From an uncultured Syntrophomonadaceae bacterium (GTDB lineage: Bacteria > Bacillota > Dethiobacteria > DTU022), in contig CAYMDO010000002.1 of assembly GCA_964389365.1 (NCBI GenBank), forward strand, positions 19,268 to 83,267: a stretch of 64,000 nucleotides of DNA, in the 5' to 3' direction. The notes beneath the pieces are model-generated. The model was not told the DNA's origin. It saw nothing but the letters and a program-made list of their open reading frames with translations, and made no database searches. A program made the translations under genes and the position numbers. Numbering within the stretch: the stretch's first letter is position 1; each line of letters opens with the position of its first letter. Positions 38,173 to 49,785 of the stretch are shown piece by piece.

Positions 38173-38585
38173 CTCCTTGTTTTTGTTTTTTGAAGCATCG
38201 TCATTTTAGCCCGCCCGCCGGGAATGCGGCAAAACCCGGGTTAAATTGTTAAGCTGCAGGCACGGCGTTACTTGGCCGGTTCGGTTACGCGTATCTGCCG
38301 CTAAAAAGGGGCAGTATCTGCCGGACGCCGGTGCGGGTTGCTTTAAAACCCACAGTATAATTTCGCAAAAGGTTGACCGCCGCGGCTGCAATAGCTTATG
38401 TGATAACTTTAACCCTGACCGTACGGATAGTTGACTTCCTGATCTATGCACACTACGATATGTATCAGGAGGTCTTTGCCTTGCGGGCCGATACTCTATT
38501 CGATTACTTACCGGTATCGTCCGCCTGTCGCCTGAAACGAAAGTACTTGGGCAATGCCGGGAAAATATGTCGGGAGTGGGGAAAG

Positions 38586-39413
38586 ATGCTTAAGGAATAT
38601 TACAGGCTGGGCCGGCCAATAAACGCCCTGGCCGGGGTGTTGGCAGTATTTGTCAGTGCCTATGCAGCCGGGCCGTTGTCCTGGTGGCCGGTGATCGCAG
38701 CGTCGCTGACGGTATTGCTGATTACAGTTTCCACCAACGCATGGAACGATTACGTAGATATTGAAATTGACCGCATCAACAAACCCGGGCGGCCGCTGCC
38801 GTCCGGAAAGATCAGCCCGAAAGGGGCCCTGGCATTTTCATTAATTGGGACTGCTATTTCCCTGCTGATTGCCACTTTTATTAACCTGCCGGCTTTTTTA
38901 ATTGCAATCGGGGCCAACATTTTGCTTTACCTTTATTCATGGAAGCTAAAGTGCACAGTTTTATGGGGCAATATTACTGTTGCTTTGATCATCGGCCTCT
39001 GTTTCATATTTGGCGGAGTGGCAGCCGGTAACATTAAACCGACACTGATGCTGGCCGTTACCGTTTTTTTGGCGATGATGGGCCGTGAAATATTAAAGAC
39101 AATGGCTGATTACCGGGGAGATCTTGAGCAGCAGTGCAGAACCATATCTACCGGATGGGGCAAAGCGTCGGCCCGTCGTTACACAATCGTGTTTTTAACC
39201 CTGGCAAAGGTCATGATGCTGGTCACCTATTTTGTAGAAGATTATAAGCCCGCTTATCTGTACCTGGTTATTTTCGGCCTCTACCCGATCCTGACCTATA
39301 TTGCTATAAAGGCTAAAAGCGATGCTGACGGTCATGCCCTGGAGAACAACAGCACTCTTATGAAGTACAGCTTTTTTATCTGGTTTTTGGCAGTTGTGCT
39401 GGGAGCGGCTTAA
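38586..39413 (+). CDS. UbiA-family aromatic/isoprenoid prenyltransferase
   Basis: NDYVDIEIDRINKPGRPLPSG (NDxxDxxxD) motif; 8-9 TM helices. Strong RBS, ATG at 38586. The ORF's longer upstream extension is judged non-coding. Confidence 0.75.
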   Translation: MLKEYYRLGRPINALAGVLAVFVSAYAAGPLSWWPVIAASLTVLLITVSTNAWNDYVDIEIDRINKPGRPLPSGKISPKGALAFSLIGTAISLLIATFINLPAFLIAIGANILLYLYSWKLKCTVLWGNITVALIIGLCFIFGGVAAGNIKPTLMLAVTVFLAMMGREILKTMADYRGDLEQQCRTISTGWGKASARRYTIVFLTLAKVMMLVTYFVEDYKPAYLYLVIFGLYPILTYIAIKAKSDADGHALENNSTLMKYSFFIWFLAVVLGAA

Positions 39414-40192
39414 CCGAGAAGCGAGAGCAGGTAAATAACCATTGTGGTTCCGATCGGCACAGTGAGGTCGTCAATTGTTGAAGGTGACAGCAGTTCGGTT
39501 ACCGTACCGACGCCGGCGGTAATAAAAGAATAGGCCACGACAGCCTGAAAAGTCAGCTTGTGCTGGTTGATTGGATTGAGCAGGCCAAAAAAATAGAATG
39601 CCGCAAAACAGAGGATGAATGCTGATATAAAAAAGGTCAGGGAACCTTCCAAAGTACGGCCTGTGCCGGTGTGGGCGATCCTGATTTTAAACCTGCCGTA
39701 TTTCTTGCCGACCACCGAGGCAAAAGTATCGCTGATGATCATGATCAGGATGCCGCATATCGGGAAGTAGAGCCGGTCGGGGGCAAAAAGGACAAAAACG
39801 GCGATCAATAAAGTGATCGAGACGCTGTAAAAAAAGGGGCCTTCCAGGCGGCCGGTCCGTTCCTCGGCTTCTTCACCGATCGATTCATACAGCTCCTGCA
39901 GCTGTTTAACCGAGCTGTCGCGGGAACAAAAAAAGACCACGATAGCCAGGCTCAGGGAAATAAATACTGCAAAAAGAGGCAAGATAAAGAAAGGAACAAC
40001 CAGAACGATCAACCCGGTGAAGAGGTGCACTATTTTACGGGCGTGAAATTTAGAAATAATATTTTTCTTTTTCAGGAATACAGGGATGGCAATAGTCAGA
40101 ATTACATAGCCGTAAGCGATGCCGATTAAAACCAGGTCGTACAAAAAATCCGATAGCGTGTAGCCGGCAATGATCATCAGCAGTTTCTGCAT
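39410..40192 (-). CDS. polyprenol/phytol/dolichol-kinase-like membrane protein (CTP-transferase superfamily)
   Basis: 260 aa polytopic. C-terminal ISDTFASVVGKKYGRFKIRIAHTGTGRTLEGSLTFF resembles the kinase motif of VTE5/SEC59-type polyprenol kinases. Confidence 0.5.
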   Translation of the reverse strand: MQKLLMIIAGYTLSDFLYDLVLIGIAYGYVILTIAIPVFLKKKNIISKFHARKIVHLFTGLIVLVVPFFILPLFAVFISLSLAIVVFFCSRDSSVKQLQELYESIGEEAEERTGRLEGPFFYSVSITLLIAVFVLFAPDRLYFPICGILIMIISDTFASVVGKKYGRFKIRIAHTGTGRTLEGSLTFFISAFILCFAAFYFFGLLNPINQHKLTFQAVVAYSFITAGVGTVTELLSPSTIDDLTVPIGTTMVIYLLSLLG

Positions 40193-40356
40193 TAGCTAGG
40201 CATCACTCTTTCGCTTTACCTTGGGTCACACTAACAAACAGCTAAAGTATAGTTAAGAAAATGGGGCCTGTCAAGGCATGAAGCTTCAGTATCAGGTCCT
40301 GATCGTCCCGCAAGAAAGTTGCAGGCGGGCCTGTCCCGCCATTGTTTTACCCAGGT

Positions 40357-41571
40357 TTAAAGCTTGCCGGTAAAAGTTCTGGCCAGGGGATTTTTATCAT
40401 TTAAATGATGGACAAAAAGATCTACCAGGCCGGGAAAGCGTAATAGAGTATTGGTTAAATAAAATGTCCTTCTTAAATTTTTTAGCAGCTTTTCCCGGCA
40501 TAACAGCTCGTAACGGCCGAGGGTATTTAATGAAAAATCATTGCTGTTCAAGGCCTGGTGAGCAATTTCTGCCGCAATCTGCCCCGAGAGCAGGCTGCGG
40601 TTGATCCCGCCTCCCGTCAGCGGGCTTATAAAACCGCCGGCATCGCCTACCAGCAGCGCTCCGGGAAAGGCATATTGCAGGCCCTTTTGGGAACCAAAAT
40701 TTAACGGCCAGCTGGCGATGTTTTCAAGCTTGAAGCCCGTTTTTAACCGGGGCTTGATTAACGGCATATTTAAAAAGAGGTTGAGCATCTGCTGTAAATT
40801 GTGTGACCCGCTGTGATAATGATCGAGGCGCATCCCGAGGCCGATATTGGCCCTGCTGCCGGAAAGCGGAAAAATCCAGGCGTAACCGGGCAGGATACTG
40901 CCATAGATGTAGAATTCCACTTCATGCGGGTAAAGCTCAATATTTTCAGCATAAGCCCGTATGGCGACAGCACGGTGGTTCCTGGCATGTCGTTCTCCGT
41001 TTCTCAGGGCGCGGGCCAGGGTGGAGGCAACACCGTCCGCACCGATAACAACTTTTGCTCTTATTTCGTTATTCTTTTGCCCATTGCTCACTTGCACCCC
41101 GGTTACCCGGCCGTTTTCAATGATCGGCTTTTCAGCAGTTGCCCGGTGAAACTTGGCTCCTGCCCGGATTGCTTCTTCGCGGATCAGGTTGTCAAAGTGA
41201 AAGCGTGGCGCTACGGCGGCGCTGAAACCACCGGGGCTTTTGGCCAGCGGGTAACTTCTCTCGCAGCCTTTAGGAGAAATCAGCCGCATGCGTTTCAGGG
41301 AATACATTTTGTCGCTTTTACCGGCAGCATCAAGTGCTTCCCCCATCCCGGCGCCGTAAAGCAATTCAATCGCTTTAGCCGGCAGGGCATCGCCGCAGGT
41401 TTTGTCACGTGGAAAGTCGTCTTTATCCAGCAGGATTACATCGTGGTTTTTTTCTGCTAAAAGCGCTGCCGTAAAAGCCCCGGCCGGTCCCGAGCCGACA
41501 ACCACTACTTCAGCATGCAGTTCTTTCACCATTGCATCAAACCTCACCATTACCTGATTTTTGGTCGCCAA
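40357..41571 (-). CDS. geranylgeranyl reductase family FAD-dependent oxidoreductase
   Basis: VVVVGSGPAGAFTA dinucleotide motif and PRDKTCGDALP, as in ChlP/GGR enzymes. The true start is probably M14 (41532). Confidence 0.75.
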   Translation of the reverse strand: MATKNQVMVRFDAMVKELHAEVVVVGSGPAGAFTAALLAEKNHDVILLDKDDFPRDKTCGDALPAKAIELLYGAGMGEALDAAGKSDKMYSLKRMRLISPKGCERSYPLAKSPGGFSAAVAPRFHFDNLIREEAIRAGAKFHRATAEKPIIENGRVTGVQVSNGQKNNEIRAKVVIGADGVASTLARALRNGERHARNHRAVAIRAYAENIELYPHEVEFYIYGSILPGYAWIFPLSGSRANIGLGMRLDHYHSGSHNLQQMLNLFLNMPLIKPRLKTGFKLENIASWPLNFGSQKGLQYAFPGALLVGDAGGFISPLTGGGINRSLLSGQIAAEIAHQALNSNDFSLNTLGRYELLCREKLLKNLRRTFYLTNTLLRFPGLVDLFVHHLNDKNPLARTFTGKL

Positions 41572-41583
41572 ACAGGTTAGCTG

Positions 41584-42993
41584 TTAATTGTTATCAAAAC
41601 GCTGCCGGCTTAAAGTGCCCCAGCCACCTCGTTTAAAAGTAAAATCAATCAGTCCCAGAAAACGCCACCAGCAGTGAATTTGCCGGTAAAAGAAATTCTC
41701 GGCAATCGCAAATGCAAATAGAACCAGAACATCTTTCAGCTGCGGATAACTGCGGTAATAAATCTCTTCCACCAGCAGGGCCGCTGTGGAAAGCAGGACA
41801 CCCAAAAGAACAGCCACACTGAAGAAGAGCAATACAAAGGGTAGATTAAGCAGTCCGCTGGCCAGTGCATAGATTAAAATAAGGTAACCGCCAATCTCAA
41901 TCACCGGACCCAGAAATTCGAAGAAAAGAAAGAAAGGATAGCTGATCATCCCTGCCGTTCCATACTGGGGATTTAAAAACATCTCAAAGTTATTAAATAA
42001 ACTTTCTGCAAGCCCGCGCTGCCAGCGGCGACGTTGGGTTTTCAGGCCACCATAGGTTTCGGGCACCTGGGTCCAGCATACCGGATCGGGCACAAACTGA
42101 ACCCGGTAGGGCCGTTTAATTTTTTTCATGGTCCGCTGCAGGCGGAGCACCAGTTCCATATCTTCACCGATTGTGTTGGTCAGGTAACCACCGGCAGTAA
42201 TTACCGCTTTCCTTCTAAACACGCTAAAAGCCCCTGACAAAATTAACAAACCGCCAATTAAAGACCAGCCTGCTCTGCCGAAGAGGAAAGCCCTCAAGTA
42301 CTCCACGATCTGGAACCGCACCCAGAATCGCCCGGAAAGTCTTACTGCCTTAACCATGCCTCCCTCGACAGAAGCTCCATTGGCGGCCCTGATTGTGCCG
42401 CCGGCAGCAATTACCCTCCAATCTTTTGCAAACAGGTCGGTTATTTTTAGCAGGGCTTCGCTGTCAACCAGCGAATCTGAGTCAATATTACAAAAAAGTG
42501 GGTACTGCGCTATATTAATGCCGGCATTTAGCGCATCAGATTTGCCCCCGTTTTCCTTATCGATAACCACCAGGTTTGGGTAATAGGCAGAGCGATAGAT
42601 CTTGTTAATCTTTTTTGTTTTTAGTTCTGCCCGGTAATTATCAAAACCGGGTTCAAGTGAAAATGATTCTTTTAAAACTTCTATTGTCTGATCTGTTGAT
42701 CCATCGCTGGCCACGATTACTTCAAAATCAGGATAGCGCAGAGAGAGTGTTGAACGAACCGTTTCAACGATGGTCGCTTCTTCATTATAGGCCGGGATGA
42801 TAATCGATATCGGTTTAAAGAAACTGGATTTAAAAGATAAATCACGACTGGCAATTTTTTCAGCCAGGCTGATATTTTTTATACCAAAAAAAGATATTAC
42901 CACCAGCACCAGGTAGCCCAGATTAATAGCCAGAAAATAAAGGATGATAAAGACGCTGTAGAAGATAATAAATATCTGACCACAACTCATCAG
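41584..42993 (-). CDS. processive family-2 glycosyltransferase (PgaC/cellulose-synthase-like exopolysaccharide synthase)
   Basis: DGSTDQT (DxD region) and the QRRRWQRG (QxxRW) motif, with N- and C-terminal TM helices. The start at 42993 overlaps the upstream gene's stop (ATGA). Confidence 0.8.
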   Translation of the reverse strand: MMSCGQIFIIFYSVFIILYFLAINLGYLVLVVISFFGIKNISLAEKIASRDLSFKSSFFKPISIIIPAYNEEATIVETVRSTLSLRYPDFEVIVASDGSTDQTIEVLKESFSLEPGFDNYRAELKTKKINKIYRSAYYPNLVVIDKENGGKSDALNAGINIAQYPLFCNIDSDSLVDSEALLKITDLFAKDWRVIAAGGTIRAANGASVEGGMVKAVRLSGRFWVRFQIVEYLRAFLFGRAGWSLIGGLLILSGAFSVFRRKAVITAGGYLTNTIGEDMELVLRLQRTMKKIKRPYRVQFVPDPVCWTQVPETYGGLKTQRRRWQRGLAESLFNNFEMFLNPQYGTAGMISYPFFLFFEFLGPVIEIGGYLILIYALASGLLNLPFVLLFFSVAVLLGVLLSTAALLVEEIYYRSYPQLKDVLVLFAFAIAENFFYRQIHCWWRFLGLIDFTFKRGGWGTLSRQRFDNN

Positions 42994-44135
42994 CTTACCT
43001 CTTTTGAGGCCAGCACGTAAGCGGCGATTGTGGCGGCCTTGGTTTTTGAGCCATCGGCTTTCTGAGTAAGTAAAGAAGATCCGGTACTGCCGGCAGCTAT
43101 CAGGGCCTTGGCTGCGTGGTAGCGAACCCACCAATTCTCGTCATTTAATAACTGGTCAAGCATCGGCATCATATTGTCTGCCGGGGCCAATTTAGTAGTC
43201 TGGATCGCAAAACTTCTGATCACCCAATCCTCGTTTTCCAGGTAAAGTCCGGGATTATATGAGGCCGGCAGTTTGCCTATGCGCAAAAATGCCTTCATGA
43301 TGTGAATAATAGTCTCGTTTTCCGCCCCTGCCAAAAGACAGTTCAACACCGAAAGAGCTTCAGTATAGCGGTAGTGGCCAAGCAGATCGATCAAAATCAT
43401 GATCATTAAACTCAGATCAATTTCGGCAGCTTTAGGCTTCGCTATCAGGTATCTAAAAGCGCCCTTTTTCTTGCGGGAAGCTATAAATTTCACCGGGAGT
43501 TCCCCCCGGCTGTACTTATCAAGCAGAGCCGTAATAGGCCGGCAGACTTCAATACTGAAGCGGGAGAGAATTTCTGTAATCCCTTCGTAGGTAAAATAAG
43601 AGTTACTGACCAGGGCTTTTAAAACAGGGCTGAAGACACGGGGATTATTTGAAACTGCCAACCCCTGGGCGGCGGCTAAGACAAGCAGGTGGTTTTTACT
43701 TTTCAGCATTCTAATCCGGGTTGAGATCGATTGATAGCAGCGAAAGTCACCCAGCATTTTTGCTGCTGTTGCCCGATCATAAATATTCCTTTTTAGAAGC
43801 CTTTCCCGGTAGTAGCCGATCATGCTGATCTCCCGGCAGAGGGCTTTGGTTGCTTCAAAATCCCGGCCATCGAGCATCTCTAAGTACGGGGTAAAAAATT
43901 TCCTGAAAAAATGGTAATTTTTATTCTTCAGAAACGGTTTTATTATATTGTTAAGCTCAGACTTGCCGAGGATATAATCGATAAAAAGCTTTTCCCATTT
44001 TTTTTCACAGAGGCGATACTGTTTTTCCTCGCGTGCATTTTTTATGCGTAAGATCACTATAATTGTCAGAAATGAAATAATTACAGCGCTGACCAAGTAT
44101 ATAATATAGAGCAGGATAGTTAAATAAGGATCCAT
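42990..44135 (-). CDS. single-pass membrane protein with cytoplasmic HEAT/PBS-lyase-type repeats
   Basis: N-terminal TM helix and a C-terminal NDENWWVRYHAAKALIAAG HEAT-like repeat. Confidence 0.5.
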   Translation of the reverse strand: MDPYLTILLYIIYLVSAVIISFLTIIVILRIKNAREEKQYRLCEKKWEKLFIDYILGKSELNNIIKPFLKNKNYHFFRKFFTPYLEMLDGRDFEATKALCREISMIGYYRERLLKRNIYDRATAAKMLGDFRCYQSISTRIRMLKSKNHLLVLAAAQGLAVSNNPRVFSPVLKALVSNSYFTYEGITEILSRFSIEVCRPITALLDKYSRGELPVKFIASRKKKGAFRYLIAKPKAAEIDLSLMIMILIDLLGHYRYTEALSVLNCLLAGAENETIIHIMKAFLRIGKLPASYNPGLYLENEDWVIRSFAIQTTKLAPADNMMPMLDQLLNDENWWVRYHAAKALIAAGSTGSSLLTQKADGSKTKAATIAAYVLASKEVS

Positions 44136-44141
44136 TGATAT

Positions 44142-44510
44142 TTACTCCCCGATTATTTTGTTGATCCGCGAAACCATATCATCGAGCTCAAAAGGCTTTA
44201 CTATATAATCGCTGGCTCCGGAAAGCAAAGAGTTACGCAAATCACTTTCCTTGTTTTTAACCGAAAAGATGATGATTGGTATAACCCGGCCGGCATTCCT
44301 GAGACGTCTTAGGATCTGGTTCCCGTCAAGATGCGGCATCATCATGTTTAGCAGCCCAAGATCAGCTTTTCTCGCTAAAAGCTCTTGAAGGGCCGCCTCT
44401 CCGTCGAAAGTTTGTATGACCCGGTAACCTTCCTGCTTCAGGCGGGCAGAAATCAGGTTGTTGATTCTTTTTTCGTCTTCAGCGATCAAAACAGTTTTAG
44501 ATTCTGACAT
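44142..44510 (-). CDS. stand-alone response-regulator receiver (REC) protein
   Basis: VLIAEDE ... conserved Asp in LLNMMMPHLDG ... K in IIFSVK. No output domain. Confidence 0.75.
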   Translation of the reverse strand: MSESKTVLIAEDEKRINNLISARLKQEGYRVIQTFDGEAALQELLARKADLGLLNMMMPHLDGNQILRRLRNAGRVIPIIIFSVKNKESDLRNSLLSGASDYIVKPFELDDMVSRINKIIGE

Positions 44511-44517
44511 CATTAGC

Positions 44518-45657
44518 TTAATCACCTGCCGTATCATGCAGGATGTTGGACAGCGCCGGTTCATACCACTGTAAGTAAAAACGGAATTCGATGGGCAATC
44601 CCGGCAGGTAAGACATAAACCGCTGGATCTTTGCGCTTCCTGTCAACCGCGGTGTAAGCAGGGCAGGCAATTGATCGGTAAAATCTCCGGCGAAGTAAAA
44701 GCGTTTTGCTTCACCGGGAGGGGTATAGCTGATCATGGCCGGGAAACGCTCGGGAAGGCTGCGCCTATCCAGATCTGCGCGGGCCTGATCCGGCAAAGGT
44801 ATTTCATAGTAGGCCAAAACTTCCGCTCCAGGAAGAGGTTCCAACACCTCTACCCAATAGAGATAGGGAATGTTTTGGGAAGTTCTACCTTTAAAGGGGT
44901 GGGCTGTGTAGTTGATTACCGGCCATGGTCCGGTTAGCTCTTCACCGGAAACAACAACAAGGTCGCTGCGCCAGCTGAAAGAGGGCACTTCCTCGCGCAC
45001 GAAAACCATGCCCGGACCGCGAAGGTCCCACTCGAGTCCGTAGATCTTTTCATATAACTGCTTTAGCCAGAAAGCCGCGTCATTTAGGTCGCTGTAATAA
45101 CGCCCCAGCCATCCGGTGTAGCTGACAGCAAATACAGCCTGCAGCCTTAATGAAGCATCCGGATCAAGATAGGTAGGGTAGCCGAAGATGTTATGTTCAC
45201 CGATGATCCGTTTATTTTCCTTTGTTGAAAAATATTCTATTGCTTCTACCTCGTTTAGGTCAAAGCCGCCGTAGAGCAGCTTGATATTTTGTATTTCAAA
45301 AGGCAGCTGCGCCTCGTAAAGATCAAAGCCCCCGGGATAGTCATAGATCCCGTAACTGTCTGCCAGGTAGAGCAGGTCGGCATCTGCCAGCTCTGAAAGA
45401 GTCAGGGTTTGCTTCTCACCGGTTGCCGGATGGAAGCCTAAATAATCATGGTGGAAATTGTAGAAATCACCGCCGGGTTTACTAAAACGCCTGTGTTCGG
45501 CGACCCAGAATATGGCACGGTGCTCGCGAAAGGTGGTATCGGGAACCGTTTTGTTAACAACAAGCAACTTAATTTCCTGCCTGGGGCTAAGTGGCCAATG
45601 CACCAGCCAGCTTCCGGACAGCAATATAATGATTAGCACCAGGTGCCAGCGTTTCAT
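44518..45657 (-). CDS. membrane-anchored hypothetical protein (379 aa)
   Basis: N-terminal signal-anchor MKRWHLVLIIILLSGSWLV. No recognised domain. Confidence 0.5.
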   Translation of the reverse strand: MKRWHLVLIIILLSGSWLVHWPLSPRQEIKLLVVNKTVPDTTFREHRAIFWVAEHRRFSKPGGDFYNFHHDYLGFHPATGEKQTLTLSELADADLLYLADSYGIYDYPGGFDLYEAQLPFEIQNIKLLYGGFDLNEVEAIEYFSTKENKRIIGEHNIFGYPTYLDPDASLRLQAVFAVSYTGWLGRYYSDLNDAAFWLKQLYEKIYGLEWDLRGPGMVFVREEVPSFSWRSDLVVVSGEELTGPWPVINYTAHPFKGRTSQNIPYLYWVEVLEPLPGAEVLAYYEIPLPDQARADLDRRSLPERFPAMISYTPPGEAKRFYFAGDFTDQLPALLTPRLTGSAKIQRFMSYLPGLPIEFRFYLQWYEPALSNILHDTAGD

Positions 45658-45679
45658 TAGAGGTTTCCTTTCGTTCGGC

Positions 45680-47947
45680 TCACGGAATTGTCAGTAAGTA
45701 ATCGGCTATCAGGTCATAGCTTCTTTTCAGGCGGAACTGAAAGAGCGGCTCTTCCCATCGATTCCAGTTAAAAGCTGTAATCCCGGTTTTAAATTGGTCA
45801 CCGCGTCGCGGGAAAAAGTCAAGCACGGCAGGCCATGAAAGATCATTGCTGTTTGCTGATTGTTCGCCCTGATAGTAAGTAAGGACGTAAAAATTAAAGC
45901 CGCTACCAGTTTCAATACTTAATTGATCCCTGGCCGGCAGATCATTATAATTACGGAGGTCTCTAATAACTGAACCCCCTGAAGGATCGGCAATATTCAG
46001 GAGCATCCAGGGCAGGCGGATTAAAATCCGACCATCAGGCAAGGATTCCCAGTGAGCAAGTGAGTTGTAATCTTCAGCCTCAGGATTAAAGTTACCGTAA
46101 GTGAGCGCACTCTCGTTAGCGAAAAGGGCAGGGAAATAAAGGCCTTCCAAAGTAGTTCGTTCACGGTTTACAAGGGTATTAATCGTTTCGAAATCAGCTA
46201 ATGATGAAGATTGGGGATTAAAGTTGAGTAGCCCCCTGTTATAGGAGGGAATGGCAACGAGAAGCGCTTCCCCGGGAGTTTTTAGATCAATTAGAAACTG
46301 GACCGGGCCTGGAAGTTCAGGCAGCCCGGAGAAGGGAAGCTTAAATTCACCGGCATCAGGTATTCCGCTGTTGATCCCTATAGCCAGCCCAACGATTTCC
46401 CAGGGGAACGTACCGCTCTGCCTGAATGTCGCCTGGTCTAAGGTGATTGCCAGGTAAAGAAAAGCTTCGTCGGCACCTGCTTCAAGCTTTTTAATCATCC
46501 CGAAAGTGCTTTCATGATCATCAGGAGGTGCAAATGCTTTATTATCAAAAGCTAACTGCCAGTCGCTTAATAGTTCTTCCAGGGGGCGGGCCAGGGGTTC
46601 AACGGCCAGTATCCCGTAATTTTGTTCGGGGCACATCGTGTTTTGCCAGAGAACCTGTCTTTCCCAGGGAACCATAAAAGGTTCAGTGTTCCAGGTTTTC
46701 TTAGCCCATTCATCGCTCCACTCAAAGATCAGCCCGCCGGCGTAGCCTTCATCAATGATGGAGCGCATCATCCGAACAACCATCGTGCCCTGATCGACTT
46801 CGCTCAAACCACCATGATTTAACCCTTCAGGGTTGAAATGAGCGGTGTTAAGAGAAGTGGATATGCCAAACTCGGCTATGAGCGCCGGGTAAGGGGGGTG
46901 GATAGCCATAAACTGATTAAGGTAACCCTTGTAACGAAAAACACCCTCATCGTCCCTAAAAGAGACAAAAGCCGGTTCATTGTTCATTAAATCAGGATAA
47001 TTTGGATAGACATGATAGGCGCCGAAAAACCCTGCATAATTGGATGGTCCGGAGATAAAAATATTTGGATCAACAACCTCCCGGTCATTATAGCCTGGCG
47101 TTCCGTCTGCTTCCCATTCGGTCAGGTGTGTAAGAGGATCCAGGGTAGGCCAACTGACAAAACCTACCGGGTATTGACGTTCATACTGAGAATCACAGTA
47201 AGCGGCAGCATAATTAGTCATGTCTGCCAGCCAGACTTCGGTTGCCGAAGCACCATTTCTGGTTTGCACGAAGTCGCCCTGAAAAAGAGTAAGGTCAGGA
47301 TTAGCCTTATTGGTTGCTGCAACTTCTTCCGGTTCCAGTTCGCGACCGATCAGCAGTCCCAGCAGGAAAGGAGAAACATCAACAGAGTATTTACCATAAG
47401 CCCGGTATGGTCTGGCTGGAATATCGGCATTGCCGTGGAGGGCATCAATAACCAGTTTTATCTCCTGCCGGTATTCTTCCGCATAATCCTGGTTATAAAA
47501 ATTCAGGTCAGGCACTTCATCATCAGGCCAAATCTCCTGGAAAAGCCAAAGAGTTTCATTTTCGGGATTTCTGTTATATTCTGCCAGGACGGCGTAAAAA
47601 GCGGGGTCAAGCAGGGTGTAAATTCTGATCGTATTGGCATTCATAGCGGCTATTTCTTCGATCCAGCGGGCGTATAATTCACGATCTGCCGGAAAATCAG
47701 TATACCAGCGACCGGGCAACGAGGTGCCGATGTTGACGCCTTTAACGATTAATTCCTGCCACTGATGCCCGTTGTAAATTTCAAAATATCTTTCGGCGGT
47801 TCGGGCAGAAATACAGCGGTTTCCAACAGTGGCGCATGAATTTGAAGCCTGGTTTTCCCCGTTGGTGCAGCCGGTCGGCAGGCTTAACGCCAATAATAGA
47901 GAACTTATTAAGATTACAGGGAGTAAAACAGCTCTATTAATGAGCAA
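45680..47947 (-). CDS. large lipoprotein (755 aa) with N-terminal TIM-barrel glycoside-hydrolase-like region
   Basis: Lipobox-like LSLPTGC. GVNIGTSLPGRWYTDF...NANTIRIYT is reminiscent of GH-A clan glycosidases. The C-terminal ~350 aa are unassigned. Confidence 0.5.
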   Translation of the reverse strand: MLINRAVLLPVILISSLLLALSLPTGCTNGENQASNSCATVGNRCISARTAERYFEIYNGHQWQELIVKGVNIGTSLPGRWYTDFPADRELYARWIEEIAAMNANTIRIYTLLDPAFYAVLAEYNRNPENETLWLFQEIWPDDEVPDLNFYNQDYAEEYRQEIKLVIDALHGNADIPARPYRAYGKYSVDVSPFLLGLLIGRELEPEEVAATNKANPDLTLFQGDFVQTRNGASATEVWLADMTNYAAAYCDSQYERQYPVGFVSWPTLDPLTHLTEWEADGTPGYNDREVVDPNIFISGPSNYAGFFGAYHVYPNYPDLMNNEPAFVSFRDDEGVFRYKGYLNQFMAIHPPYPALIAEFGISTSLNTAHFNPEGLNHGGLSEVDQGTMVVRMMRSIIDEGYAGGLIFEWSDEWAKKTWNTEPFMVPWERQVLWQNTMCPEQNYGILAVEPLARPLEELLSDWQLAFDNKAFAPPDDHESTFGMIKKLEAGADEAFLYLAITLDQATFRQSGTFPWEIVGLAIGINSGIPDAGEFKLPFSGLPELPGPVQFLIDLKTPGEALLVAIPSYNRGLLNFNPQSSSLADFETINTLVNRERTTLEGLYFPALFANESALTYGNFNPEAEDYNSLAHWESLPDGRILIRLPWMLLNIADPSGGSVIRDLRNYNDLPARDQLSIETGSGFNFYVLTYYQGEQSANSNDLSWPAVLDFFPRRGDQFKTGITAFNWNRWEEPLFQFRLKRSYDLIADYLLTIP

Positions 47948-48102
47948 AACCGGGTATTCACCTCGTTAAGAGCCTGTTTTTTCGATTATAGCATGACTTA
48001 GCTTCTGTTGTGCATTTTTTGCGAAATAATTGGCTAATGCAATAATAGTAATAGCCATTAACAGTTTTTGCTAATACCCGTTGCTGCAGGAAGGAGTCTG
48101 GA

Positions 48103-49284: not shown

Positions 49285-49785
49285 TCAGGTGCCGAGCATG
49301 CCCCGCACGATCGAGCCGCTTATTTGCAGGCTCATCAGCAGGAAAAAAGTGTTCTTAACTGCCGGGGTGAAGATAAACAGAATATGTTTCAACAGCTTAA
49401 ATAAACCAAGTACGATGTAAATTATGCCTGCTACCAGTAAGGCTGATATTATACTTCCGCGGATCTCGGCCAGTGGTTTTCCAATCTGGGGGGCAACTGA
49501 GCCGATAATGATCAGCACGTTATACCACATGGCCCCGATGCCTTCAAAGACCGGCAGGCGGTGGCCGAAGTACAACTGGATGATCGAGAAGAGGCCGCAA
49601 AAGAAGAAGGTGCGCTGGATAAAACAGCTGATCTCAAGCTGATCCAGCCCGAGCCCGGTGCCGACCACGCTTGGAATTACGGCAAGGACAGTCAGTGAAA
49701 AAATAACCCACTGCAGGCTGTAAACTGCTGTTTTACTGTGCGGCGGTATATCTTCAGCTTGATATAGTAGTATTTCCTTGCTCAA
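49285..49785 (-). pseudogene. NCS2 (xanthine/uracil permease) family N-terminal fragment, 166 aa
   Basis: TM-rich segment with NCS2-like N-terminal helices. The ORF stops after ~166 aa, whereas the family is ~430 aa. Confidence 0.4.

Follow-up and report, generated by a model that had tools for sequence, protein, structure and literature searches.

Introduction

Only few synthase-dependent polysaccharide systems are understood so far, and the best-studied of them are switched on by cyclic di-GMP (c-di-GMP). Such exopolysaccharide (EPS) secretion systems are defined by four components (PMC7112194), namely a processive synthase in the inner membrane, a c-di-GMP-binding regulatory domain or co-polymerase, an extracytoplasmic modifying enzyme and an export part with TPR protein and outer-membrane pore. 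Here we analyse a stretch of 64,000 nucleotides (nt) from an uncultured Syntrophomonadaceae bacterium (GCA_964389365.1, contig CAYMDO010000002.1, positions 19,268 to 83,267), which as a whole is called the window in the following. It carries a minus-strand operon for a lipoprotein of 755 amino acids (aa), a 379-aa protein, a lone receiver protein (REC), a HEAT-repeat protein and a glycosyltransferase of family GT2. We consider it likely that these proteins form a machine for synthase-dependent glycan synthesis and secretion, which is of a conserved but uncharacterised type.

Among the closest described systems, Pga and Ica produce poly-N-acetylglucosamine (PNAG) with a small membrane GT2 carrying the QxxRW motif (PgaC/IcaA), and Pga uses c-di-GMP that is bound between PgaC and PgaD. 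The Bcs cellulose system has a dedicated glycanase, BcsZ, and with BcsE a degenerate REC-GGDEF tandem, which is a precedent for a receiver fold acting on polysaccharide machinery and for degenerate receiver and GGDEF folds as non-catalytic synthase subunits (PMC7439463). The YdaJKLMN operon of Bacillus subtilis and PssA-E of Listeria are Gram-positive EPS operons of the synthase type, which next to a GT2 encode a dedicated hydrolase (YdaJ/PssZ), a c-di-GMP receptor of the GGDEF type in the membrane (YdaK/PssE) and large accessory proteins associated with the membrane (PMC13274460).

Results and Discussion

The operon runs from 47947 to 41584 with five open reading frames (ORFs) arranged head to tail in the order 755, 379, REC, HEAT and GT2 (Table 1). 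The original prediction, which was made from the letters of the sequence, had described five tightly spaced or overlapping genes of an unusual exopolysaccharide-type locus, and this description was right in all essentials. The family of the 755-aa protein was searched for in a set with one genome per species and among 1.84 billion cluster representatives at 50% identity. It is present in 192 species-level genomes from several phyla, with more than 990 close relatives and with 1,978 clusters at 50% identity, 726 of them at E ≤ 1e-30. The nearest relatives (60–71% identity) belong to metagenome-assembled genomes (MAGs) of uncultured Syntrophomonadaceae, and further members were found in Desulforamulus, Thermosyntropha, Syntrophomonas, Acetobacterium, Caloramator, Carboxydothermus and Ammoniphilus as well as in other Clostridia, Actinomycetota, Caldisericota, Spirochaetes and Desulfovibrionaceae.

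For 83 loci, the translations of all ORFs were compared with profiles and phmmer queries that derive from the window proteins. In 58 of these loci a GT2 of this type is encoded at most 6 kb away from 755, and these 58 loci contain HEAT in 55, the 379 domain in 44 and REC in 39 cases; the three GT2 loci without HEAT are all cut by contig ends. The HEAT protein is thus an obligate partner of the synthase. Four gene orders recur, namely 755-379-(PAS kinase)-REC-HEAT-GT2 as in the window (A), (coiled-coil)REC-HEAT-GT2-755-379 (B), ODP-GGDEF-REC / HEAT-GT2 / 379-755 (C) and kinase-REC-HEAT-GT2-755 (D), and a diderm-type order reads REC-HEAT-GT2-(TPR-755)-(722-aa TPR protein). The components are also found fused to each other: 379-755 with the 379 part at the N-terminus in 38 of the 83 loci, HEAT-GT2 in 27 loci with the whole HEAT protein as the N-terminal ~380 aa of synthases of ~1,010 aa, GT2-755 in four loci of Actinomycetota and 755-HEAT in four clusters. 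Moreover, at least 10 clusters have the 755 domain joined to a CE4 deacetylase, and a TPR-755 fusion also occurs. The neighbourhood that was to be sought in other genomes therefore recurs in dozens of them and in different phyla, and again in the form of fusions. The five genes form one system, as they cluster far beyond chance and show both synteny across phyla and pairwise fusions. That they might be unrelated housekeeping genes which happen to be neighbours can practically be dismissed, since the cross-phylum synteny and four kinds of pairwise component fusion refute it.

Some of the surveyed loci show peculiarities. The locus L089 (L089:1-9086, Logan SRR11723144) is of the diderm type; its REC has the acceptor Asp, TPR and 755 together form a protein of 868 aa, and the 722-aa protein, which has TPRs at its N-terminus and a C-terminal half without assignment, is possibly an outer-membrane exporter. 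Six loci (L035, L042, L051, L053, L061 and L021, from Thermovenabulum, Caloramator, Carboxydothermus, Syntrophomonas wolfei and Desulforamulus putei) carry a 755 gene without GT2, HEAT or REC within 6–8 kb, four of the six having the 379-755 fusion. Here the synthase gene may lie elsewhere in the genome, or else the 755 enzyme acts independently of a synthase. In a locus of Desulfovibrionaceae the interval between HEAT and 379 where the GT2 is expected (L044:5299-7132) holds no long ORF, which may reflect a disrupted synthase or an assembly problem. Two loci, L030 and L066, contain a second, more divergent 755 copy within the same 18-kb stretch, in L066 together with a second GT2 and HEAT, which suggests paralogous systems.

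The synthase matches Glycos_transf_2, Glyco_tranf_2_3 and Chitin_synth_2 of Pfam, contains the DSD, GED and QRRRW motifs and has transmembrane (TM) segments at both its N- and C-terminus. Its best NCBIfam model is PgaC_IcaA (TIGR03937; 144.7 bits, E 4e-42), with the equivalog cutoff of 422.3 not being reached, and it shows 28% identity to PgaC from E. coli over 349 aa. The CelA models gave only 49.9 bits (cutoff 699) and 24.7 bits (cutoff 992), and a synthase of the NfrB type was rejected (E 1e-3). The HEAT protein was identified by Pfam HEAT_2 (E 6e-14) with its TM segment within residues 1–35. Thus motifs, TM segments and Pfam agree with the predicted pair of a QRRRW-type GT2 and a single-TM HEAT protein. 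The predicted lack of a PilZ or PgaD partner was borne out as well, with no PilZ in the Pfam scan and, at the intergenic junctions, neither a small ORF nor room for a PgaD/IcaD-like partner.

The 755-aa protein has no match in Pfam or NCBIfam, a sub-threshold hit to GH72 being the only one in Pfam, and neither the protein nor its family profile matched a solved PDB chain by sequence at E ≤ 1, the GH157 entries included. Its AlphaFold2 model (pLDDT 91.8, pTM 0.90) shows a (β/α)8 barrel at residues ~60–450, and the remainder is β-sandwich. Fold searches gave GH157 as nearest in fold by a clear margin, so that model and fold searches uphold the N-terminal TIM-barrel glycosidase-like region of the original prediction and the remote-homology check leads to a GH-A barrel with GH157 closest. 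The matches also include the β-1,3-glucan enzymes of GH72, GH158 and GH17, and GH5 mannanases and GH2 enzymes have scores nearly as high. The sole link to GH157 is the structural alignment with 18% identity, and at the sequence level the protein does not fall into this family. In the model E203 is located just past strand 4 and E359 on strand 7, which are the positions of the acid/base and the nucleophile in clan GH-A. Both candidate catalytic residues are invariant in 85 of 85 relatives, and further conserved residues are R108 (82/85), H312 (83/85), Y314 (84/85) and W414 (85/85). Compared to the GH157 endo-β-1,3-glucanase from Labilibaculum antarcticum (PDB 9fz9/9g4n) and to clan GH-A, an Arg on β2, the Glu after β4, a His-x-Tyr on β6, the Glu on β7 and a Trp on β8 are conserved, with the strands taken from the model. 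Barrel and Glu positions are therefore those of clan GH-A but the Asn-Glu motif of the clan is absent. In contrast to GH157, the 755-aa protein has an Arg-Glu motif, additional C-terminal β-sandwich domains, a lipid anchor and no sequence match, and its gene is tied to a synthase whereas that of GH157 belongs to a degradation locus. The signal peptide ends with LPTG-C, Gly-Cys being the majority pair at this position across the family, which fits a lipoprotein. From sequence conservation and model the protein is probably active as a retaining glycanase or transglycosylase, its family is absent among solved structures, and within the system it would do this work outside the cytoplasm.

For the 379-aa protein no Pfam, NCBIfam or PDB sequence match was obtained, neither with the protein nor with the family profile. 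In its AlphaFold2 model (pLDDT 92.4), a TM helix at the N-terminus precedes a domain that resembles class-I glutamine amidotransferases (GATase1) and ThuA. It had been described as an unknown membrane protein; the membrane anchor stands, with one N-terminal TM helix, the protein is not polytopic, and its identity is now that of an anchored GATase1/ThuA-like domain. This fold is also found in GH42 enzymes, Agd3, OST48/WBP1 and PelA, where it forms an accessory domain, and of which Agd3 and PelA are EPS-modifying enzymes. In contrast to PelA and Agd3, the domain is here a separate anchored protein or an N-terminal fusion to the GH-A enzyme, and both the Pel system, which uses a GT4, and the galactosaminogalactan system of Agd3, which is fungal, are unlike the present locus. 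We infer that the 379-aa protein would be a non-catalytic scaffold for, or partner of, the 755 enzyme.

Measured against the four components, the locus has an inner-membrane processive synthase, as seen from the GT2 Pfam matches, the three motifs, the TM segments and the PgaC homology, and with the modelled GH-A barrel and its invariant candidate Glu residues a predicted extracytoplasmic modifying enzyme. The five proteins contain no PilZ, GGDEF, GIL or MshEN domain, and HEAT and REC occupy the regulatory place. A TPR protein or outer-membrane pore is missing in the window and present in relatives (the TPR-755 fusion and the 722-aa TPR protein); its absence is expected, as the window organism is a probable monoderm. 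The predicted reading as a synthase-type locus for polysaccharide synthesis and export is supported.

The locus resembles Pga/Ica in its small membrane GT2, for which PgaC/IcaA is the closest characterised relative, and in having an extracytoplasmic processing enzyme; the 755-CE4 fusions of other lineages echo PgaB, and diderm relatives add TPR proteins that can be compared to PgaA. It differs from Pga/Ica in that the operon has no PgaD/IcaD, the GT2 is far under the equivalog cutoff and HEAT and REC are the regulatory partners. Polysacc_deac_1 (CE4) was not found by Pfam in the operon or its immediate neighbours, and in contrast to PgaB the hydrolase is an unrelated GH-A barrel, the comparison of the 755 profile with PgaB giving a probability of 0.2%. 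With Bcs it has in common that it is synthase-dependent and has a dedicated glycanase, and the ODP-GGDEF-REC proteins of some relatives, with their degenerate domains, resemble BcsE. The differences are the absence of PilZ, BcsB, BcsQ and BcsR, a GT2 which is only distant from BcsA, and a receiver that is a separate protein. To our knowledge, no HEAT subunit has been reported for Bcs. The likeness to Yda/Pss lies in the general composition of the operon, from which it is set apart by its domain content, as there is no GGDEF in the five proteins and no above-threshold glycosyl hydrolase family of Pfam. The Romboutsia mixed-linkage glucan synthase, the clostridial Ccs cellulose operon, Yda and Bcs were considered and are different systems. 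A match to a known system, which would have spoken against the original prediction, was therefore not obtained, the locus being neither Pga, Ica nor Bcs nor, by domain content, Yda/Pss. We found no description of this gene set in the searchable full-text literature, outside of which most subscription journals lie. Together with two extracytoplasmic families that lack any Pfam, NCBIfam or PDB sequence match this agrees with the predicted undescribed type: the locus works like a synthase-dependent system and belongs to no named one.

The original prediction had also called the machine phosphorylation-regulated, and this did not hold. The only Pfam match of the window REC is Response_reg (E 8e-25), and when aligned with CheY its acceptor region reads DLGLLNMMMPHLDG, with an Asn at the position of D57. 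At the CheY positions 12, 13, 87 and 109 it has E, D, S and K, so that fold, acidic pair and Ser/Lys of a CheY-like receiver are present and the acceptor Asp is not. The same Asn occurs in L004, an independent assembly with the same sequence, and in the related MAGs L006, L007, L008 and L018, and therefore no sequencing error is involved. These five have no kinase gene in the cluster, and the Pfam scan detected no histidine kinase gene in or beside the window operon either. The window REC is thus, by its sequence, an aspartate-less pseudo-receiver. The Asp is kept in 12 of 12 loci in which an orthologous PAS-HisKA-HATPase gene adjoins REC (L001, L009, L011, L012, L014, L015, L026, L079, L044 from Desulfovibrionaceae and L024, L025 and L027 from Actinomycetota). 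In about 20 loci of gene order C, where an ODP (di-iron)-GGDEF-REC protein ends with the receiver, the acceptor position is occupied by Glu. Both A-site and I-site of the GGDEF domain are degenerate in these proteins, for which reason we reject c-di-GMP reception by it. Their ODP domain (for example in L073:1784-3805 and L036:2856-4949) is an oxygen-binding di-iron domain of the metallo-β-lactamase fold, and ODP-GGDEF-REC could sense redox state or oxygen and pass on the signal by a conformational change only.

Kinase and acceptor Asp were lost together in the window lineage, probably in a single evolutionary event, and we therefore count these losses as one observation. As related loci pair the orthologous PAS kinase with an Asp-bearing REC, the ancestral module was very probably phospho-controlled, and in such loci, and only there, phospho-control is plausible. 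For the window itself it is very unlikely that the lone REC is phosphorylated by an orphan kinase encoded elsewhere and that the machine is under two-component control, as had been proposed. The kinase directly beside REC in related loci speaks for it, and so does the fact that the window REC retains the other residues of the acidic pocket as well as the conserved Ser and Lys; these points stand against the replacement of Asp by Asn in the window, L004 and the four related MAGs, the missing kinase in or beside the operon and the coincidence of kinase loss with Asp loss. The receiver fold hence appears as a frequent subunit encoded directly upstream of HEAT, whose input was swapped repeatedly between a kinase, a di-iron sensor and none.

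Aspartate-less receiver domains are known from RitR, FrzS and HP1043. A further precedent is a single-domain response regulator of Myxococcus that is reported to activate an EPS priming transferase (PMC12802240). The common feature of such proteins with the present REC is a receiver fold acting by protein–protein contact, in some cases without acceptor Asp or phosphorylation. Unlike in these examples, the putative partner here is a HEAT-scaffolded GT2, a pairing that we did not find in the literature searched.

A model for the machine can be suggested in which the PgaC-like GT2, judging from its family and motifs, would polymerise a sugar nucleotide at the inner membrane face and thread the chain through its own TM channel. 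The TM-anchored HEAT protein would be a fixed cytoplasmic subunit of the synthase, as its near-universal co-occurrence and the natural fusion suggest, and the receiver-fold protein encoded just upstream would be the control subunit docking on HEAT or GT2, with the adjacency observed and the docking assumed. On the outside the GH157-like GH-A lipoprotein may work with the anchored GATase1-like domain, to which it is linked by fusion, and by analogy to BcsZ, PgaB, PelA, PslG and the fungal GH72 enzymes the 755 and 379 proteins could trim, release or transglycosylate the nascent polymer. Control in the window would be independent of phosphorylation, which follows from the Asn acceptor and the absent cognate kinase gene; REC might be a constitutive subunit or be governed by expression or a ligand.

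Several points weigh against this picture. The roles of all members are deduced, and it is the gene order only from which we infer the contact between REC and HEAT. A nearby REC is missing in 19 of the 58 GT2 loci, so that REC has to be regarded as accessory, and among the 50 fully flanked loci there are nine in which the 755 family occurs and no GT2 lies within 6 kb, so that the genes of 755 enzyme and synthase can also be separate. The residue in front of the acid/base E203 is an Arg in 83 of the 85 sequences where Asn is the norm in clan GH-A. Finally, the clues to the polymer are in conflict, with the PgaC-like synthase and the CE4 fusions pointing to an N-acetylhexosamine (HexNAc) polymer and the GH157-like fold and GH16 to a β-glucan, and GH16 and CE4 are both missing from the window itself.

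A HexNAc polymer and a β-1,3-containing glucan are the leading candidates, and both readings concern the polymer only; the first of them agrees with the machine proposed above. A β-glucan with 1,3-linkages, curdlan-like or of mixed linkage, with the 755-aa protein as β-1,3-glucanase or glucanosyltransferase, is a possibility that we regard as real and still rather doubtful. It is suggested by the GH157-like fold with GH72, GH158 and GH17 among the matches, by the weak GH72 match in Pfam and by GH16 as the commonest immediate neighbour (13 of 125 flanking ORFs, in 13 loci of the gene orders A and C), these GH16 proteins being most similar to bacterial 1,3-1,4-β-glucanases of the lichenase type. 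However, a fold likeness within clan GH-A does not fix the specificity, as the GH5 mannanases and GH2 enzymes score nearly equal; the GT2 is nearer to PgaC than to the cellulose-type synthases (49.9 bits with CelA), there is no GH16 in the window clade, and CE4 fusions are unexpected for a plain glucan. These fusions, together with CE4 genes adjoining in five loci, give an enzyme pairing as in PgaB and PelA and favour a divergent PNAG (Pga/Ica-type) or chitin-like system instead, in which the GT2 would make poly-N-acetylhexosamine and the 755-aa protein would stand in, without being homologous, for the hydrolase domain of PgaB. PgaC_IcaA as the best NCBIfam model and the identity to E. coli PgaC, set against the E-value of NfrB, the Chitin_synth_2 match with QRRRW and the GH18 gene beside the operon in the window clade are in line with it. 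Nevertheless, we think this system somewhat unlikely: the score of 144.7 is to be compared with a cutoff of 422, PgaD/IcaD and a deacetylase are missing in the window, no similarity was seen between the 755 profile and PgaB, CE4 enzymes also take off O-acetyl groups, and the GH18 is nearer to spore peptidoglycan glycosylases than to chitinases.

The same GH18, which is YdhD/YaaH-like and divergently adjacent in the window clade, would fit a glycan of cell wall or spore rather than a biofilm exopolysaccharide, with the anchored GH-A enzyme grafting it onto the wall in the way of fungal GH72. The two extracytoplasmic proteins are anchored to the membrane, the fold matches include GH72 transglycosylases, and accessory proteins of relatives contain a Cu_amine_oxidN1 domain, which is typical of clostridial surface proteins. 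Such a wall or spore glycan is nonetheless unlikely, as the GH18 adjacency is limited to close relatives and possibly inherited synteny, and the system is also present in non-sporulating phyla such as Actinomycetota and Spirochaetes and in putative diderms with a TPR export protein.

Concerning the layout of the operon, the gap between 755 and 379 is 22 nt, 379 and REC overlap by 20 nt with the ATG at 44537 as REC start or by 47 nt with the longest ORF, REC and HEAT are separated by 6 nt, and the HEAT stop overlaps the GT2 start by 1 nt (TGATG at 42990). The ATG at 44537 is also the gene call of an independent assembly, and REC is probably 131 aa long. The GT2 starts with the ATG at 42990 (MSCGQIF...), giving 468 aa, and a 516-aa ORF with TTG uses a wrong start. 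The 755 gene itself has a TTG start codon with GAGGTG as ribosome-binding site in front. About 40 nt upstream of it a consensus scan found a promoter-like site (Table 1), which by its sequence is a possible operon promoter. Since the scans for promoters and terminators gave the same counts in the region as in shuffled sequence, the operon boundaries rest on gene spacing only.

Table 1: Operon genes, promoter-like site and neighbouring genes in the window.
Feature	Position	Strand	Description
Gene 1, 755-aa lipoprotein	45680..47947	-	N-terminal clan GH-A (β/α)8 barrel (predicted), then C-terminal β-sandwich domains
Gene 2, 379-aa protein	44518..45657	-	N-terminal TM anchor and extracytoplasmic GATase1/ThuA-like α/β domain (predicted)
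Gene 3, lone REC, ~131 aa	44142..44537	-	longest ORF extends to 44564
Gene 4, 381-aa HEAT protein	42990..44135	-	one N-terminal TM helix and cytoplasmic all-helical HEAT-repeat domain
Gene 5, 468-aa GT2 synthase	41584..42990	-	membrane-embedded, processive, distant PgaC/IcaA relative
Promoter-like site	47985..48014	-	TGCACA-18-TATAAT with TG extension (TGcTATAAT)
GH18 gene, 364 aa	48103..49197	+	N-terminal TM; divergent from operon; Pfam Glyco_hydro_18
PAS-GGDEF-HD-GYP protein, 831 aa	55096..57591	-	intact GGDEF motif and RxxD I-site (RSED...GGDEF)
UbiA prenyltransferase; 260-aa multi-TM protein; geranylgeranyl-reductase-like FAD protein	38373-41571	+; -; -	multi-TM protein without Pfam match

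The best solved relatives of the divergent GH18 are the spore glycosylases YdhD and YaaH/SleL, and its adjacency is kept in the closest relatives only (L006, L008 and L018). It could serve the system as an accessory enzyme or belong to sporulation as an unrelated glycosylase, and its link to the locus is uncertain; as a chitinase signalling a chitin-like product it is a weak candidate, its nearest solved relatives being spore glycosylases. An ORF of 166 aa at 49285-49785 on the minus strand spans the first 145 of 389 positions of a xanthine/uracil permease model, and the ortholog in L006 has ~450 aa, so that it looks like what is left of a truncated permease gene, directly next to the 3' end of GH18.

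A PAS-GGDEF-HD-GYP sensor had been noted 8 kb away; the gene is present, and its distance from the operon start is 7.1 kb. In L001 the cluster lies directly between GGDEF/HD-GYP proteins that resemble the window protein in this region, and a c-di-GMP or other regulatory link to the operon is possible. On the other side, the geranylgeranyl-reductase-like gene begins 12 nt past the GT2 stop. All three genes of this region are present in L006, the membrane protein and UbiA in L018, and UbiA in L007. They may represent an isoprenoid-lipid module that is co-transcribed with the operon, and were excluded as a part of it, being conserved only in the closest relatives.

Conclusion

In summary, a GT2 synthase, its HEAT partner, a receiver-fold protein and two extracytoplasmic proteins are encoded together as one system. 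They might even represent an unnamed further class of synthase-dependent systems, which occurs in at least 192 species-level genomes from several phyla. In this class HEAT and receiver subunits, either kinase-driven, aspartate-less or embedded in ODP-GGDEF-REC proteins with degenerate domains, would replace the c-di-GMP receptor of the cellulose, PNAG, Pel and alginate synthases, and a new GH-A family with a GATase1-like partner would process a possibly new polymer; we regard this wider proposal as open to serious consideration, its chances falling a little short of even.

The locus would add a widespread system from anaerobic Clostridia, acetogens, syntrophs, Actinomycetota, Spirochaetes and putative diderms. 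Its two accessory protein families are not represented in any domain database. Its control logic would be a different one, with a HEAT scaffold and a receiver-fold subunit that changed its input several times, and it offers a concrete case for how a receiver domain could gate a glycan synthase directly. For annotation it follows that a "response regulator" beside a synthase need not imply phosphorylation. The 755-aa protein is a candidate for a new glycoside hydrolase family, and the possibly new polymer may be relevant to how granules and biofilms form in anaerobic digesters and soda-lake sediments.

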